Assembly (NCBI GenBank): GCA_963711565.1
Contig: CAVQEQ010000004.1
Span: 832,001-896,000 of the forward strand
Direction of reading: 5' to 3'
From: an uncultured delta proteobacterium
GTDB lineage: Bacteria; Desulfobacterota; Binatia; Binatales; Binataceae
Length of the DNA: 64,000 nucleotides
The notes under the pieces were generated by a model. It ran no database searches. It was given only the letters and a program-made list of their open reading frames with translations, and had not been told where the DNA came from. The translations under genes and the position numbers were made by a program. Below are positions 4,598 through 21,814 of this stretch, piece after piece (within the stretch, counting starts at the first letter, position 1; every line of letters begins with the position of its first letter).

Positions 4598-4621
4598 AAT
4601 GCGAGGCTCCACGCCCCGCAT

Positions 4622-5194
4622 TTAGTAGAACCACTTGCCGTTGTCCCAGCGGAAAATTTCCGTGGTGTGGGTGTCGCTGACGGTCTTGGGCGCCGCGTGC
4701 CGGGCCTCGTCCTCTGACTTGCCGACGATGTAGTAGACGAATTCCTCGTACGAGATCTTTCCGATCGAATAGCCGTCTTTGGACTGATGCGATTCGCACT
4801 CGGCTATCTTGCCGTAGCCGGTGTAGGTCGCGGTCTCGAAACCTTCTTTCAGGACGAACTGCAAATTCGACAGATTATTAACCTCGCGGTCGTGCAAATC
4901 CTGCCCCCAATGTTTGCAAAAGTCCGGAAACAGTGCCGATGCCTTCTTAAATTCGATGTCGCGCTTGATCCGGTCGGGCGTGATCTTCGCAATCAGTTTT
5001 TTGACCTCTTGCCGCAGGGTCTTCTTCGCCGCCGGTGAAGCCATTGCCCCCGGAACTGCCGCGCTATCGGATGCTGGAGCGGATGATACCTCCGCACCCT
5101 CTTGCGGTTGCGCGCGCCCCGGCGACGCCACCAGCATCGCCGCCAATGCGAACGCCGCGACCGCTCCAATACCCATCGTTCGTATAAACGTCAT
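4622..5194 (-). CDS. Secreted hypothetical protein
   Basis: Signal-peptide-like N-terminus (…PGRAQ), coding-like codon use; start uncertain. Confidence 0.7.
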   Translation of the reverse strand: MTFIRTMGIGAVAAFALAAMLVASPGRAQPQEGAEVSSAPASDSAAVPGAMASPAAKKTLRQEVKKLIAKITPDRIKRDIEFKKASALFPDFCKHWGQDLHDREVNNLSNLQFVLKEGFETATYTGYGKIAECESHQSKDGYSIGKISYEEFVYYIVGKSEDEARHAAPKTVSDTHTTEIFRWDNGKWFY

Positions 5195-5258
5195 AGCGAT
5201 GGACTCTATAGCAAAAATCAGCGTCATCGTCAGCCTTTCGCAAAGAGAGGTGTCGCGC

Positions 5259-5294
5259 AAAAAAAGGCCGCAGCCCCATAACGGGACTGCGGCC
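5259..5294 (-). terminator. Intrinsic terminator of OmpA copy 1
   Basis: GGCCGCAGTCCC-loop-GGGGCTGCGGCC plus T7 on minus strand. Confidence 0.9.
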
Positions 5295-5323
5295 GGTTGT
5301 GGACGTTGCAATCGCGGTCCGGC

Positions 5324-5998
5324 TTACTGTTCGGGCACCAGTTCGACGCGGCGGTTCTGAGCGCGGCCCTCAGCCGTTCTGTTGGTCGCGACGAAGCCGG
5401 TCTTGCCGTAGCCGTGCACCCTCAACTGGAGCACGTTGATTCCGCCGTTCATCAGGTAATTCGCAACGGCGTTGGCTCGATACTCGGAGAGCCTCTTGTT
5501 GTATGCGTCGTTGCCGATCCAGTCGCAGTAACCGTTCACGTTGATCACGGTGTTCGGATTGGCCTTTAGAGTAGGAATGGCTTCATCCAGCACGGCCGCA
5601 TCGCCCGGACGGATGATCGCCTTGTTGAAGTCGAAATGCACTCCGCGCAGCACCAGCTTCGGCGGTGGTGGAGGAGGTGGTGGCGGCGGTGGCGGAGGCG
5701 GCGGTGGAGGAGGTGGTGGCGGCGGCGGTGGCGGCGGATTCGGCGCCAGCAGGTAACCGATCGTGCCGCCGATTAGCGCGCCCCCGACGACTCCCACAGG
5801 ACAACCGATCTCATAGCCCTTGCCGGTACCGCTTAGTCCCGCGGCAAGTCCGCATCCCAGGCCTGCGCCGGCAATTGCGCCGTCAACCGATCCCCACCCC
5901 GCGTAGTATTTCTGCTCTGGCGTCCACGACGCGCATGACGAAGCCGTAAATAAAACGACAATCGCAAGTGCGCCTACCCAACTTTTCCGCTTATGCAC
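5324..5998 (-). CDS. OmpA-family lipoprotein, copy 1 (glycine zipper, Pro26, OmpA_C domain)
   Basis: Lipobox SSC; VHFDFNK, GYCD, LSEYRA, GRAQNRRVE. Confidence 0.93.
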   Translation of the reverse strand: MHKRKSWVGALAIVVLFTASSCASWTPEQKYYAGWGSVDGAIAGAGLGCGLAAGLSGTGKGYEIGCPVGVVGGALIGGTIGYLLAPNPPPPPPPPPPPPPPPPPPPPPPPPPPKLVLRGVHFDFNKAIIRPGDAAVLDEAIPTLKANPNTVINVNGYCDWIGNDAYNKRLSEYRANAVANYLMNGGINVLQLRVHGYGKTGFVATNRTAEGRAQNRRVELVPEQ

Positions 5999-6045
5999 TA
6001 GCACCCCTCCCTGGGATTCAAGCCGTTCCAGAATTTAGCACCCGA

Positions 6046-6074
6046 ATTGTGTCATTTTTGGGTATCTAGGTCTA
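6046..6074 (-). promoter_or_regulatory. Sigma70-like promoter of OmpA copy 1
   Basis: TAGACC-N17-CACAAT with TG extended -10; same motif before copies 2-4. Confidence 0.7.
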
Positions 6075-6127
6075 TTAGCGGACGAAGCGATTACCTAACA
6101 CGGGATTCGTAACCGTTCGTTCACCAG

Positions 6128-6165
6128 AAAAAAGCGGCCGCAGCCCCTCGAGGGGACTGCGGCCG
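6128..6165 (-). terminator. Intrinsic terminator of OmpA copy 2
   Basis: Same hairpin family plus T tract. Confidence 0.9.
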
Positions 6166-6193
6166 GTTACAAGCGTGTCAGTTCTGTTCCGAC

Positions 6194-6874
6194 TTACTCG
6201 TTAGGCACCAGCTCGACGCGACGATTCTGGGCGCGGCCCTCGGCCGTGTCGTTGGTGGCGACGAAGTCAGTCTTGCCGTAGCCGTGCGGAATCAACTGGC
6301 TCGACGGGATCCCAGCTTTCACCAGGTAGTCCACGACCGCATCCGAGCGCCGATCGGACAGCTTCAGGTTGTATTCCTCACCGCCGATCGCGTCGCAGTA
6401 GCCGTTGACGCCGATCGTCACGTTCGGATTGGCCTTCAGAGTCGATGCGGCCTCATCCAGCACGGCGGCATCACCCGGCCGAATCTTCGACTTGTTAAAG
6501 TCGAAATGCACACCGCGCAGCACCAGCTTCTGCTTGACCGGCGGCGGCGGAGGCGGTGGCGGAGGAGGCGGTGGTGGTGGCGGAGGAGGCGGCGGCGGTG
6601 GCAGAGGTTTAGGCGCCAGGAAGTAGCCGATCGTGCCGCCAATCAGAGCGCCGCCAACCACGCCGGTCGGGCATCCAATCTCGTAGGCTTCGGCGGAGTG
6701 ACCTTTATCCTGGGTGGCTGCAATTCCGCAACCGAGTCCGCCGCCCAGGAGCGCGCCGGCGCCCGCTCCGTAAAGCGTGTACTCCTTCTGCTCAGGCGTC
6801 CATGACGAGCATGACGAGACAGTGAGGAGCACGGCGCACGCCACTGCCGCAATCCAATTCTTCGATTTAAGCAT
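6194..6874 (-). CDS. OmpA-family lipoprotein, copy 2 (Pro21 linker)
   Basis: Lipobox SSC, glycine zipper, OmpA_C motifs. Confidence 0.93.
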   Translation of the reverse strand: MLKSKNWIAAVACAVLLTVSSCSSWTPEQKEYTLYGAGAGALLGGGLGCGIAATQDKGHSAEAYEIGCPTGVVGGALIGGTIGYFLAPKPLPPPPPPPPPPPPPPPPPPPPPVKQKLVLRGVHFDFNKSKIRPGDAAVLDEAASTLKANPNVTIGVNGYCDAIGGEEYNLKLSDRRSDAVVDYLVKAGIPSSQLIPHGYGKTDFVATNDTAEGRAQNRRVELVPNE

Positions 6875-6922
6875 TAAGACCCTCCCAAGTTACGAAGACA
6901 TCTCCGAAGGTAAACTCCCCAA

Positions 6923-6951
6923 ATTCTGACATTTTTGGAAAACCAGGTCCA
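6923..6951 (-). promoter_or_regulatory. Sigma70-like promoter of OmpA copy 2
   Basis: TGGACC-N17-CAGAAT. Confidence 0.7.
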
Positions 6952-7006
6952 TTGAGGCACCCAAGCCGTCTTATACCGCCTGACCCGTAACAGCTCGTTT
7001 ACAAAG

Positions 7007-7042
7007 AAAAGCGGCCGCAGCCCCTCGAGGGAACTGCGGCCG
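7007..7042 (-). terminator. Intrinsic terminator of OmpA copy 3
   Basis: Same hairpin family plus T tract. Confidence 0.85.
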
Positions 7043-7069
7043 ATTACTAGCGTTGTCAGTCTCGGCGAC

Positions 7070-7765
7070 TTACTCGTTAGGCATCAGCTCGACGCGGCGG
7101 TTTTCAGCGCGACCCTCGGCCGTGTCGTTGGTGGCAACGAAGTCAGTCTTGCCGTAGCCGTGCGGAATCAACTGGCTCGACGGGATTCCGGCGTTCACCA
7201 GGTAATCCACGACCGCATTCGCGCGCCGATCGGATAGCTTGAGGTTGTATTCCTCACCGCCGATCGCGTCGCAGTAGCCGTTGACGTAGATCGTCACGTT
7301 CGGATTCGCCTTCAGAGTTGATGCGGCCTCATCAAGAATTGCGGCATCACCCGGACGAATCTTCGACTTGTTGAAATCGAAATGCACTCCACGCAGCACC
7401 ACCTTCTGCTTGACCGGCGGCGGTGGAGGCGGTGGCGGAGGTGGCGGCGGAGGTGGAGGTGGTGGCGGCGGTGGCAGCGGTTTCGGTGCGATCAGGTAGC
7501 CGACGGTGGCGCCGATCAGTGCGCCGGCGCCGACTCCGACCGGGCATCCGATCTCATAAGCCTTGGCACCCTGCACGCCCACGCCACCATGTCCGGACGT
7601 CGCTGCGGCAATTCCGCAGCCGAGTCCGCCGCCGAGGAGCGCACCGGCGCCCGCTCCGTATAACGTGTACTCCTGCTGCTGTGGCGTCCAATTAAACGCG
7701 CACGACGAGAGCATCAGAAGAGCGACGCTCGCAAATCCGCCCACCCAATTTTTCCACTTGTACAC
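7070..7765 (-). CDS. OmpA-family lipoprotein, copy 3 (Pro20 linker)
   Basis: Lipobox LSSC, glycine zipper, OmpA_C motifs. Confidence 0.93.
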   Translation of the reverse strand: MYKWKNWVGGFASVALLMLSSCAFNWTPQQQEYTLYGAGAGALLGGGLGCGIAAATSGHGGVGVQGAKAYEIGCPVGVGAGALIGATVGYLIAPKPLPPPPPPPPPPPPPPPPPPPPVKQKVVLRGVHFDFNKSKIRPGDAAILDEAASTLKANPNVTIYVNGYCDAIGGEEYNLKLSDRRANAVVDYLVNAGIPSSQLIPHGYGKTDFVATNDTAEGRAENRRVELMPNE

Positions 7766-7815
7766 TAGAGCCCCTCCCTGAGTTTCAGCCGACCCCGCAA
7801 ATTAAAACTCCGTGG

Positions 7816-7844
7816 ATTGTGCCACTTTTGGGAAGGCAGGTCTA
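7816..7844 (-). promoter_or_regulatory. Sigma70-like promoter of OmpA copy 3
   Basis: TAGACC-N17-CACAAT. Confidence 0.7.
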
Positions 7845-7895
7845 TTGAGGAACAAATCGGTTCGGATAGCGTCACGTTCGTAACAGTTCCTTCAC

Positions 7896-7933
7896 AAAAA
7901 AGCGGCCGCAGCCCCTCGAGGGGACTGCGGCCG
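7896..7933 (-). terminator. Intrinsic terminator of OmpA copy 4
   Basis: Identical to the copy-2 terminator. Confidence 0.9.
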
Positions 7934-7961
7934 GTTACAAGCGTGTCAGTTCTGTTCCGAC

Positions 7962-8633
7962 TTACTCGTTAGGCACCAGCTCGACGCGACGATTCTGGGC
8001 GCGGCCCTCGGCCGTGTCGTTGGTGGCGACGAAGTCAGTCTTGCCGTAGCCGTGCGGAATCAACTGGCTCGACGGGATACCGGCTTTCACCAGGTAATCC
8101 ACGACCGCGTCCGAGCGCCGATCGGACAGCTTGAGGTTGTATTCCTCGCCACCGATCGCGTCGCAGTAGCCGTTGACGTTGATCGTCACGTTCGGATTGG
8201 CCTTCAGAGTTGATGCGGCCTCATCCAGCACGGCGGCATCACCCGGACGAATCTTCGACTTGTTGAAGTCGAAATGCACTCCGCGCAGCACCAGCTTCTG
8301 CTTGACCGGCGGAGGCGGTGGCGGCGGAGGAGGAGGCGGTGGAGGTGGTGGTGGCGGCGGAGGCGGTGCCGGTTTCGGCGCCAGCAGGTAACCGTTCACA
8401 GCGCCGATCAGCGCGCCCATCACGACGCCAGTGGGGCATCCGATCTCATAACCCTTGGCGGAGCCACTTACTCCCGCTGCAATCCCACAACCCAGGCCGC
8501 CGCCGATGAGCGCGCCGGCAGCCGCTCCGCCCGCAGTGTATTCCTTCTGCTCCGGCGTCCACGACGCGCATGACGAGACCGTCAGCAGCACGGCGATCGC
8601 TCCAGCGCCAATCCAATTTTTCCAACTAATCAC
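7962..8633 (-). CDS. OmpA-family lipoprotein, copy 4 (Pro20 linker)
   Basis: Lipobox VSSC, glycine zipper, OmpA_C motifs; GTG 8633 is 6 nt after GGAGG. Confidence 0.93.
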   Translation of the reverse strand: MISWKNWIGAGAIAVLLTVSSCASWTPEQKEYTAGGAAAGALIGGGLGCGIAAGVSGSAKGYEIGCPTGVVMGALIGAVNGYLLAPKPAPPPPPPPPPPPPPPPPPPPPVKQKLVLRGVHFDFNKSKIRPGDAAVLDEAASTLKANPNVTINVNGYCDAIGGEEYNLKLSDRRSDAVVDYLVKAGIPSSQLIPHGYGKTDFVATNDTAEGRAQNRRVELVPNE

Positions 8634-8680
8634 TAGCACCCTCCATCAAGTTCAAGTTAGTCCGGAATCAAACGCTGCTA

Positions 8681-8709
8681 ATTCTGCCTTTTTTTGGACG
8701 CTGGGTCTA
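8681..8709 (-). promoter_or_regulatory. Sigma70-like promoter of OmpA copy 4
   Basis: TAGACC-N17-CAGAAT. Confidence 0.7.
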
Positions 8710-8770
8710 TTCACGCGTCGAGCAGGTCTGTTACGCGGGGCTCGTAATAGTGCCGTAATCGGCAGGATAC

Positions 8771-8811
8771 AAAAAATGCGGCCGCAGCCCCCTTGACGGG
8801 ACTGCGGCCGC
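8771..8811 (-). terminator. Intrinsic terminator of OmpA copy 5
   Basis: Same hairpin family plus T6. Confidence 0.88.
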
Positions 8812-8840
8812 TTTACAGACAATCTCAGTCTCGGCCCGGC

Positions 8841-9554
8841 TTACTCATTCGGTACCAGTTCGACGCGGCGGTTCTGAGCGCGACCCTCAGCCGTGTCGTT
8901 GGTGGCAACGAAGTCAGTCTTGCCATAACCGTGCGGGATCAACTGGCTCGACGGGATTCCGGCTTTCACCAGGTAATCCACGACCGCATCCGAGCGCCGA
9001 TCGGACAGCTTGAGGTTGTATTCCTCGCTGCCGATAGCGTCGCAGTAGCCATTGACGTTGATCGTCACGTTCGGATTGGCCTTCAGAGTCGTTGCGGCCT
9101 CATCCAGAACGGCGGCGTCACCCGGACGGATGATCGACTTGTTGAAGTCGAAATGCACACCGCGTAGTACCAACTTCTCCTTTACCGGCGGCGGCGGAGG
9201 AGGCGGTGGAGGCGGCGGCGGAGGAGGTGGCGGCGGTGGAGGAGGCGGCGGTTGGATTACTTCGTCGCAGAGGTAGTGGCCCGCTAGCGCGCCGACCAAG
9301 CCGCCTGCGGCTGCTCCGCCCAAGCCCGCCCATACGCGGGAATCATTGCTGCTGTTCGATTTCCCTTGGGTATTGTCAACGATGACGATGCCTGAAGCGG
9401 CACCGATACCCGCTCCAAGTGCGCCACCGACGGCCGCGCATATTCCCCACGATCGTGGCTGCTCCAGATATGCGCAACCGCTCATGCTGGACGCGAATAG
9501 CGCCGCGCCAGCGATGGCAACGACCGCATTCAAAAGCCTTGATTTCAGTCTCAT
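8841..9554 (-). CDS. OmpA-family lipoprotein, copy 5 (Pro22 linker; most divergent N-terminus)
   Basis: Lipobox MSGC, glycine zipper, OmpA_C motifs; ATG 9554 after GAGGAGG. Confidence 0.93.
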   Translation of the reverse strand: MRLKSRLLNAVVAIAGAALFASSMSGCAYLEQPRSWGICAAVGGALGAGIGAASGIVIVDNTQGKSNSSNDSRVWAGLGGAAAGGLVGALAGHYLCDEVIQPPPPPPPPPPPPPPPPPPPPPPVKEKLVLRGVHFDFNKSIIRPGDAAVLDEAATTLKANPNVTINVNGYCDAIGSEEYNLKLSDRRSDAVVDYLVKAGIPSSQLIPHGYGKTDFVATNDTAEGRAQNRRVELVPNE

Positions 9555-9821
9555 GAACTCCTCCTCACCCAAGAGCGTCTACGCGCGGAAGTGAACCCCT
9601 CACTTGCCCCCGAACGGCGAACCCATGTGCAAACGGGTATCCCCACCCAATTGACGGGGAAATATAGTTATATTTGTAACAGGAATGCAACACGTCCGGG
9701 GGGTGCAAGGCGAGATTTCTGCCCAGAGACTGGCTGGCGTCGCTGCGGCGAAGCCCGGTCGACCTGTGGATAAGTGTCGCTGAATTTGTTCCGGTTACCC
9801 GGTAAGGCGGGGCTGATACGA

Positions 9822-9872: not shown

Positions 9873-10352
9873 TCAGTTATGGTGATGATGCTTCTGCGCA
9901 GGGATTGCTCCTGCTTCGTTTGCTCCAGCCACCGGCTCGTGCTCTGCATAGGTACCCGGATGCGGCGCGACCTCGGCATGATTCTGGGCCCATTCGGGAT
10001 GATCATGCGCCCACTCTGGATGGTGCTCGTTCACCCAGTTGGGGTCGTGCGCATGCCACCAGTTCTCGTCGCGCCATACGTGACCCGAATCGTAGGCCCC
10101 GACGCCGTGCTGGGCGAGCCTCTTGTATTCGTTGGGATGGTTCTGCATGAACGTCTGCAATTCAGGATGCTCATCGCGGAATTGCTTGTTGTAAAGCAGC
10201 GACGGATCGGCGCGTACTTTAGCAGCCAAGTCCGGATGCGCATTGAGAAACTTGTCCATTTTCGGGCCCATCTCCTGCGCCATCGCCACCGATGTTATCG
10301 CGGTCGCGAGCAGAATAATCGCGCCGGCTAGCAAGGTTTTAGGATGCTTCAT
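9873..10352 (-). CDS. Secreted His/Trp/Pro-repeat hypothetical protein
   Basis: Signal peptide AMA-Q; repeated HP[DE][LW]; C-terminal HHHH; AGGAG RBS. Confidence 0.85.
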   Translation of the reverse strand: MKHPKTLLAGAIILLATAITSVAMAQEMGPKMDKFLNAHPDLAAKVRADPSLLYNKQFRDEHPELQTFMQNHPNEYKRLAQHGVGAYDSGHVWRDENWWHAHDPNWVNEHHPEWAHDHPEWAQNHAEVAPHPGTYAEHEPVAGANEAGAIPAQKHHHHN

Positions 10353-21127: not shown

Positions 21128-21814
21128 ATGAACAGAATTTCGAATGCCCTTATTCCTGCGATCGCGCTGCTGCTCGCCATCGCCGCCCCCGCGCATTCCG
21201 AGACGATGGCTCCGGCTAGTCCGCCCGTCAGCAAAGACCTGAAACAGGTACTCGATCGCCTGCAACGTCACTACCGCGACACCAATTCGTTCTCGGCGAA
21301 GTTCAGCGAGGAGGTCACCACCGTCGGCGCGCCGGCACGCAAACGTCAGGGCACGGTTTCATTTCGTAAGCCCGGACGCATGCGATGGGAGTTTGAGGAT
21401 CCCGAAAAGCAAACGATTGTCAGCGACGGCGAGACACTCTACAGCTACGATCCCGATCTCAATCAGGTCGTGGAGACTCCGTTAAAGCAGGCGCTCAAGT
21501 CGAGCAGCGCAACGTCGTTCCTGCTCGGAATCGGCAATATCAACCGCGACTTCAAGGCGTCGTTCGCGAATCCCGCGACGCCGTCCGGTCTCATCGATCT
21601 GATCCTCGACGCGAAAACCGGCGGCTACAAGATCGAGGTGGGCCTCGATCCGCAGACGTACAATCTCGTGACGTTGACGCTTACCGACCAGCTCGGCGAC
21701 GTGACCAGAATCGACTTCAGCGACATCCATGACAATGTGGAACTGCCCGATTCGATTTTCGCTTACAAGGCGCCGGCCGGCGCGGACATCGTAACGGCGC
21801 CTGCCTCGCCCTGA
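21128..21814 (+). CDS. lolA: Outer-membrane lipoprotein carrier LolA
   Basis: Signal peptide; KPGRMRWE, IVSDG, YDPDLNQV; ftsK-lolA synteny. Confidence 0.9.
   Translation: MNRISNALIPAIALLLAIAAPAHSETMAPASPPVSKDLKQVLDRLQRHYRDTNSFSAKFSEEVTTVGAPARKRQGTVSFRKPGRMRWEFEDPEKQTIVSDGETLYSYDPDLNQVVETPLKQALKSSSATSFLLGIGNINRDFKASFANPATPSGLIDLILDAKTGGYKIEVGLDPQTYNLVTLTLTDQLGDVTRIDFSDIHDNVELPDSIFAYKAPAGADIVTAPASP

Follow-up and report, generated by a model that had tools for sequence, protein, structure and literature searches.

A tandem array of OmpA_C lipoproteins with old, divergent hairpin heads on a near-constant anchor in an uncultured Binataceae bacterium

Introduction

What does a bacterium gain from five lipoproteins that share one end and differ in the other? 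The question is raised by a 64,000-nucleotide stretch of DNA from an uncultured delta proteobacterium of the Binataceae (assembly GCA_963711565.1, contig CAVQEQ010000004.1, positions 832,001 to 896,000; this whole stretch is called the window). It holds an array of five co-oriented minus-strand open reading frames (ORFs), each encoding a lipobox-like Cys, a Gly-rich hairpin (the head), a poly-Pro run and an OmpA_C domain, PF00691 (the anchor). A first-pass annotation of the DNA had proposed membrane tethers or pore subunits, possibly varying under phage or predator pressure. By sequence comparison, the heads are old types conserved across species, and species differ in the cassettes that they carry. 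We lean, with rather more confidence than doubt, towards the view that the array encodes specialised helical outer-membrane-to-wall tethers, whose conserved loops would meet different partners or conditions.

Array architecture

The five genes are, in the direction of transcription:
8841-9554, minus strand: copy 5, first in the array; A1-type head (Cys pair at the hairpin base), S-type OmpA_C
7962-8639, minus strand: copy 4; B-type head (SGS loop, flanked by the Cys pair), S-type OmpA_C
7070-7765, minus strand: copy 3; B-type head (GHG loop), S-type OmpA_C
6194-6874, minus strand: copy 2; B-type head (QDKG loop), S-type OmpA_C
5324-6004, minus strand: copy 1, last in the array; B-type head, divergent T-type OmpA_C

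All five share the layout, with PF00691 at 74-90 bits against a gathering cut-off of 27.2, and the ORFs agree with the head-to-tail arrangement of lipobox, zipper, poly-Pro and OmpA_C first described. The OmpA_C domains of copies 2-5 are mutually 89-99% identical, matching the earlier "nearly identical"; copy 1 is 71-74% identical to them. The zipper loops differ between copies as had been reported. An extra Cys pair had been assigned to copies 1-4; it is present there, and its restriction to those copies was mistaken, since copy 5 also has a pair (WGIC...HYLCD), at the base of the hairpin and not beside the loop. The poly-Pro linker is 12-26 residues long; CCC codons are avoided in these tracts (42 of ~1,970 Pro codons; e.g. 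window 5660-5737). A sixth, solitary paralogue lies on contig C3 of the same genome. The GYCD motif, correctly noted in all copies, was discarded as a special feature: it occurs in 155/161 family genes and in the Pal-like gene located separately in this genome (G000:C1:323528-324109), and YiaD has GYTD.

Run X3, an independent metagenome assembled from short reads, holds all five heads and the spacers in pieces covering 4600-5655, 5745-6215, 6515-7148, 7304-7983, 8381-8919 and 9135-9674, with 1-12 differences each. Run X1 is also concordant with the array, but it is possibly the source sample. In the DNA runs, joints linking poly-Pro tracts were regarded as repeat noise, one of their sides being <35 letters long. 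No short-read contig in the runs examined bridges the full array; the head-to-anchor pairing of copies 2-5 therefore rests on the assembly, which would leave room for an artefact. An artefact is nonetheless barely conceivable: the heads differ at a proportion of synonymous differences (pS) of 0.37-0.78, many relatives carry like arrays between the same flanking genes, and the depth in X3 over the array (112-144) is that of the flanks (128-131), a result that also speaks against the misassembly named in the first-pass annotation. Several long-read relatives have frameshifts in or near the array genes, probably sequencing errors. Contigs from RNA libraries cover the heads of copies 1, 2, 3 and 5 (X9) and of copies 4 and 5 (X16); DNA may be present in these libraries, so the coverage is a weak hint of expression. 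The gaps in the RNA data are uninformative (X9 has no contigs at several spacer bins and at 4600-5181; X17 and X18 have none on the heads).

Separate histories of heads and anchors

The closest related loci belong to Candidatus Binatus, Binataceae or an uncultured delta proteobacterium. Of 82 distinct loci, 43 were counted as syntenic because acyl-CoA dehydrogenase, two hypothetical genes or uvrB flank them, in some cases on one side only. The core set consisted of 104 genes in 31 multi-copy loci. Loci with a single ORF were removed beforehand, as were L046, with one intact ORF, and L052 and L053, which are divergent; six frameshifted genes were left out of the head statistics.

Heads group by type and anchors partly by genome. 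The nearest neighbour of a head is of the same type in 89/92 cases and from the same genome in 5/92; the former figure is partly by construction, because types are labelled by loop motif, and the trees are less affected. For S-type anchors, the nearest neighbour is in the same genome in 35/82 cases. Anchor pS is 0.27 within genomes versus 0.38 between them, whereas head pS is 0.63 within genomes versus 0.49 for the same type between genomes. Trees were built from 39 genes of 12 loci. Head type switches 8 times along the head tree and 21 times along that of the anchors; for the genome label the corresponding numbers are 32 and 20. When the four S-type genes of the window were forced into one clade, the approximately unbiased (AU) test rejected the grouping for heads (p 4e-78) and did not reject it for anchors (p 0.39). 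Neighbour counts, pS and the AU test thus all bear out the description of variable heads on a constant anchor. The clearest trace in the window is a repeated tract:
6128-6310 and 7896-8078, no strand assigned: 183-nt identical tract spanning the terminator, the 3' spacer and the OmpA_C end of copies 2 and 4

Despite these 183 identical bases, the heads of copies 2 and 4 differ at a pS of 0.53. The tract would represent recent gene conversion, and gene conversion together with unequal crossover probably acts in the anchor and terminator.

Both parts appear to be under constraint. The ratio of nonsynonymous to synonymous change (omega) per type is 0.07-0.24 for heads and 0.08-0.14 for anchors. 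In the loops, the proportion of nonsynonymous differences (pN) is below pS in 6/6 types (pN 0.04-0.28 versus pS 0.43-0.95, from pairwise counts on short loops with indels ignored), for example 0.04 versus 0.82 in A2 and 0.28 versus 0.57 in A1. Within each type, the loops are under purifying selection. By these counts, what varies is which cassettes are present, not the loop sequence within a type.

Transcription signals

Each copy is accompanied by signals of its own:
9661-9691, minus strand: promoter-like motif of the first gene (copy 5), AT-rich, different from the site of the other copies
8778-8811, minus strand: terminator-like hairpin after copy 5
8681-8709, minus strand: promoter-like site, copy 4
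7903-7933, minus strand: terminator-like hairpin after copy 4
7816-7844, minus strand: promoter-like site, copy 3
7012-7042, minus strand: terminator-like hairpin after copy 3
6923-6951, minus strand: promoter-like site, copy 2
6135-6165, minus strand: terminator-like hairpin after copy 2
6046-6074, minus strand: promoter-like site, copy 1 (TRGACC-N17-CAVAAT), with a conserved TTACG-type box ~40 nt upstream
5266-5294, minus strand: terminator-like hairpin after copy 1

The hairpins, one per gene, consist of a 13-14 bp stem followed by a T run, and the same type is found 3' of 82/104 genes in the core set. A default promoter scan of the window returned 0 sites. The TRGACC-N17-CAVAAT motif was derived from the window copies first and then compared with the relatives, where it precedes 45/69 non-A1 genes by the strict pattern and 49/69 by the loose one, against a genome background of 0.00035 per 285 nt. 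The TTACG-type box lies 39-40 nt upstream of the site in 38 of the 45. The AT-rich motif stands upstream of 29/29 A1 genes. These conserved signals support the view that each copy is a putative transcription unit with a promoter-like site and terminator of its own, and the five hairpins uphold the earlier argument that one terminator per gene speaks against an operon.

Cassette repertoire among relatives

The protein is found in 24/24 genomes of the same genus that were searched. Head profile matches extend to 17/19 genomes of the family and 73/151 of the class, mostly as single matches outside the genus. The copy-number variation suggested for checking was found at the 43 syntenic loci, which carry mostly 1-5 copies: one anchor at 9 loci, two at 6, three at 13, four at 11, five at 3 and six at 1, the last being frameshifted and possibly overcounted. 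At least eight conserved loop types occur on the near-constant anchor. The types QDKG, GHG and EDDP also stand alone, one gene per locus, in other places in Binataceae; their anchors there share 68-88% identity with those of the window, so that the loop types are likely older than the array.

The 24 cleanly parsed multi-copy loci hold 19 head combinations. The presence of SGS and of the T anchor has phylogenetic signal on a 25-tip flank tree, and that of A2, EDDP, GHG and NGS has none (P 0.25-1.0; low power, weakly resolved tree). With 18 loop variants in 29 A1 genes, this diversity could be taken for a surface-variation system, in which loops are recognised by phage, predators or contact toxins and frequency-dependent selection changes the cassette set of species and strains. 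Such a system is unlikely. Within types, loop pN stays far below pS, and A2 has only two loop variants in 14 genes. Distances between cassettes correlate with the distance between species for A1, A2 and SGS (Mantel r 0.31-0.72, p<=0.002). The correlation is borderline for EDDP (p 0.04) and absent for GHG and NGS (n=6). The same five heads, little changed, are found in independent strains. Antigenic-variation cassette systems combine silent promoterless copies, one expression site and positively selected variable regions; no such layout was found here, with promoter-like sites at 45/69 non-A1 and 29/29 A1 genes and loop pN below pS. Of the phage or predator pressure once suggested, the part that would rapidly diversify the loops by point mutation is not supported: pN is below pS within each type, and three of the loop types occur at single-gene loci elsewhere. 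Phage pressure could still bear on which cassettes a genome carries. The cassette data fit mostly vertical descent with repeated loss and gain, and it is likely that each species has its own set of predicted surface loops.

Could the array simply raise the dosage of an abundant structural tether, with heads that diverged long ago and can replace one another in function? Separate promoter-like sites with a common upstream box, accordion-like copy variation and the single-copy state of 9/43 syntenic loci, by which extra copies would be dispensable, speak for such an amplification. It is nevertheless quite unlikely, as anchors are homogenised by gene conversion and heads are not, loop types are kept at near-saturated synonymous divergence, and positions are fixed: an A1 head comes first in 29/29 multi-copy loci in which one was parsed and the divergent T anchor last in 18/19 cases.

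Head structure and the cysteine pair

An AlphaFold2 model of the copy-4 B-type head, built with 99 aligned heads, is a helical hairpin (residues 6-34 and 38-63, pLDDT 89) with helices of 26-29 residues. Five Gly are invariant in the 99 heads (G15, G19, G52, G56 and G60), which makes this a GxxxG-repeat hairpin, and PF13488 is matched at E<=0.1 by 55/99. Hydropathy of the helices, taken over 19 residues, peaks at 1.3-1.9. Exactly one Cys pair besides the lipid Cys is present in 145/147 heads. It occurs in three registers among the aligned heads, 28/45 (72 heads), 11/64 (20) and 12/61 (7); in 99/99 the two Cys lie about equally far from the predicted turn at 35-37, one on either side. More distant relatives of the same layout are without both Cys. 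The pair likely staples the hairpin as a cross-hairpin disulfide, although this is uncertain for reasons given below.

A hetero-oligomeric alpha-helical pore with the copies as its subunits, one of the first proposals for the array, is highly improbable. The glycine zippers of SlyB and TraT do form rings, but the helix cores here lack a charged or polar lining, the set of cassettes varies freely and some loci have a single copy. The TraT ring itself is described, in the part of that paper available, as lipid-plugged and not as an open channel (PMC12658005). No positive evidence for a pore was found, and a complex prediction for four copy-4 heads (score 0.01, mark 0.42) was used neither way.

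A proposed outer-membrane-to-wall tether

The proposed tether is as follows. The lipid would sit in the outer membrane's inner leaflet, and the two-helix glycine-zipper hairpin, stapled by its Cys pair, would cross that membrane. The poly-Pro linker would lead to OmpA_C, which would bind the wall. With an inner-leaflet lipid and a wall-bound OmpA_C, a spanning hairpin must place its loop outside. The heads would be specialised paralogues. On the pattern of SlyB and Dis1, their outer-leaflet partners (lipopolysaccharide (LPS), lipid or beta-barrel proteins) would differ, or else the conditions under which they are expressed. Gene conversion and unequal crossover, acting within the anchor and terminator that the copies share, would add, drop and re-pair cassettes.

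Several observations point this way. The Asp and Arg of the OmpA_C motif have a role in peptidoglycan binding; both are present in all five copies and, in copies 1 and 4, align with those of YiaD and OprF. The nearest solved domain to the anchor is YiaD (PDB 2K1S). With OmpA_C above its cut-off and a YiaD-like layout, the first-pass idea of a tether between outer membrane and peptidoglycan appears sound. By the sorting rule established in E. coli, an Asp at position +2 retains a lipoprotein at the inner membrane; none of 147 heads has Asp there. LolA and LptD are present in this genome. No barrel-fused OmpA_C was found among the 11 PF00691 matches of this genome (94.9% complete), and the helices therefore likely fill the role of barrel OmpA.

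Other results weigh against such a tether. The heads of the window proteins fall below the Pfam zipper cut-offs. The top three Foldseek rows (the Dot/Icm outer-membrane-cap chain 9ngu_Ah, TraT and SlyB) are weak, with E 1.4-1.6, and the fold comparison with SlyB (Z 6.3, rmsd 4.2, 61 residues aligned) ranks fourth behind mitochondrial hairpins and lies below the level meaningful for helices. Homogenisation of the anchors is partial, given the 20 genome-label changes on their 39-tip tree. Neither DsbB (PF02600) nor VKOR (PF07884) was found in any of the 26 genus genomes searched, and the even-Cys bias of exported proteins is weak (0.52-0.56 versus 0.44, crude gene calls); for these two reasons the disulfide is uncertain. 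A similar hairpin loop, that of TraT, can face the periplasm and lack specificity, as far as the accessible text goes (PMC12658005).

These points bear on a further alternative, in which the hairpin does not span the membrane and instead packs or oligomerises in the periplasm, with a Cys pair that may bind metal. Moderate hydrophobicity, the DsbB and VKOR result and the Asp, Glu and His in the loops are in its favour. It is nonetheless very unlikely: solved relatives by layout (SlyB, TraT and Dis1) cross the outer membrane, the helices are long enough, the Cys pairs shift register yet stay face to face, and the genome encodes four DsbA-like thioredoxins, one of them ~3 kb from the solo paralogue on C3.

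The tether proposal has a more far-reaching form, which is doubtful and offered as speculation: stapled helical hairpins would be a modular replacement of barrel OmpA, each loop type would be a conserved address, docking one specific partner in the outer membrane or serving as an identity tag, the sets would be re-dealt by recombination in the shared wall anchor, and a disulfide pathway that lacks recognisable DsbB or VKOR would make the staples. This would be a possible novel way of forming disulfides in a soil lineage that is abundant and uncultured. Outer-membrane-spanning helical proteins are rare and only recently solved (SlyB, TraT, Dis1). The array offers a natural series of loop types on one kind of anchor, with three Cys registers as built-in distance constraints on the hairpin, and it makes two questions, what the zipper loop recognises and whether it lies outside, addressable by loop swaps in a laboratory host.

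Relation to known systems

As far as profile matches go, the parts are known families; the array resembles YiaD, PA1041 or Dis1 in its working and scores below the cut-offs of YiaD, PA1041 and Pal. The YiaD family (NF053611; PDB 2K1S) shares the lipoprotein character, two-helix glycine zipper and OmpA_C, and is the best or second-best NCBIfam match and the best PDB match. Against its cut-off of 175, 5/5 copies reach 116-123 bits, and the stretch that scores best is confined to the OmpA domain. YiaD has been predicted to carry the same zipper plus OmpA_C (10.64898/2025.12.22.696046, seen in part). Relative to YiaD, the window array adds the poly-Pro linker, the Cys pair and the tandem cassettes. 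The PA1041 family (NF053612) shares a lipoprotein with a Pro-rich linker and OmpA_C and matches copies 3-5 over nearly full length, at 101-132 bits in 5/5 copies against a cut-off of 250. Pal (TIGR02802) reaches 67-82 bits against 125.

Enterobacterial beta-barrel OmpA has a membrane-spanning part with variable surface loops, a Pro-rich linker and an OmpA_C anchor. In the window proteins, by contrast, a helical hairpin is predicted for the membrane part, which is lipidated and comes in several copies. SlyB/YfgH (PDB 7OJF) shares the lipidated two-helix glycine-zipper hairpin, with a weak fold match; searched as a profile against PDB sequences, the heads gave nothing significant (best E 0.05). 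SlyB itself has no OmpA_C anchor and forms rings. Residues G79, G80 and T82 of SlyB are presumably located at its turn. The excerpt at hand describes SlyB zippers as transmembrane rings in which these three residues bind LPS (PMC12408116), and an expansion of slyB paralogues in environmental lineages is indicated in the available portion of another report (10.64898/2026.06.08.730324). Legionella Dis1, of the Dot/Icm outer membrane cap, has two helices that sit within the outer membrane and touch a porin trimer, according to the passages accessible (PMC12501162); two outer-membrane helices are also predicted for the window heads. The Dot/Icm OmpA-family chain 6x65_N matches the window anchor, and we infer that this chain and 9ngu_Ah are both Dis1. 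Dis1 belongs to a secretion machine, and no such genes were seen beside the window array. An analogy with a TraT "specificity loop" was dropped, as that loop is periplasmic and its specificity unconfirmed in the text consulted (PMC12658005). A tandem cassette array with a relocating Cys pair was not found in the literature searched at listing level, with subscription papers, including the original SlyB paper, outside the search; at the same level, no title in the Binatota literature concerned these proteins.

Neighbouring and related loci

Three other genes of the window deserve mention:
9873-10352, minus strand: secreted-looking 159-aa His/Trp-rich repeat protein immediately upstream of the array
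4622-5194, minus strand: exported-looking 190-aa protein of no known family, conserved at most syntenic loci, directly downstream of the array
21281-21766, plus strand: LolA match, the sole one in the genome, located behind an ftsK-like gene at ~12 kb from the array

The upstream protein matched no family above cut-off in family-profile scans; it is 33-67% identical in relatives, and contigs lie over its gene in 4/4 RNA runs. At other loci, headless paralogues (L095, L101, L107 and L110, about 4830-5480) have a signal peptide, the Cys, a short Pro-rich linker and a T-type OmpA_C, with no hairpin. A second, non-syntenic array of two genes with a DDPT-type loop occurs in two genomes (L048/L081 and L089). 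Near the 3' end of an HAD-hydrolase-like gene (G000:C3 ~1081092-1081157; L005 / L136), ~60 nt match, in frame and antisense, the helix-2 DNA of a B-type head, with 83% identity to a relative's array copy and 78% to the genome's own copies. The alignment of this gene to the same gene breaks at the stretch in 5/5 relatives, and it would be either a footprint of ectopic recombination or an assembly chimera.

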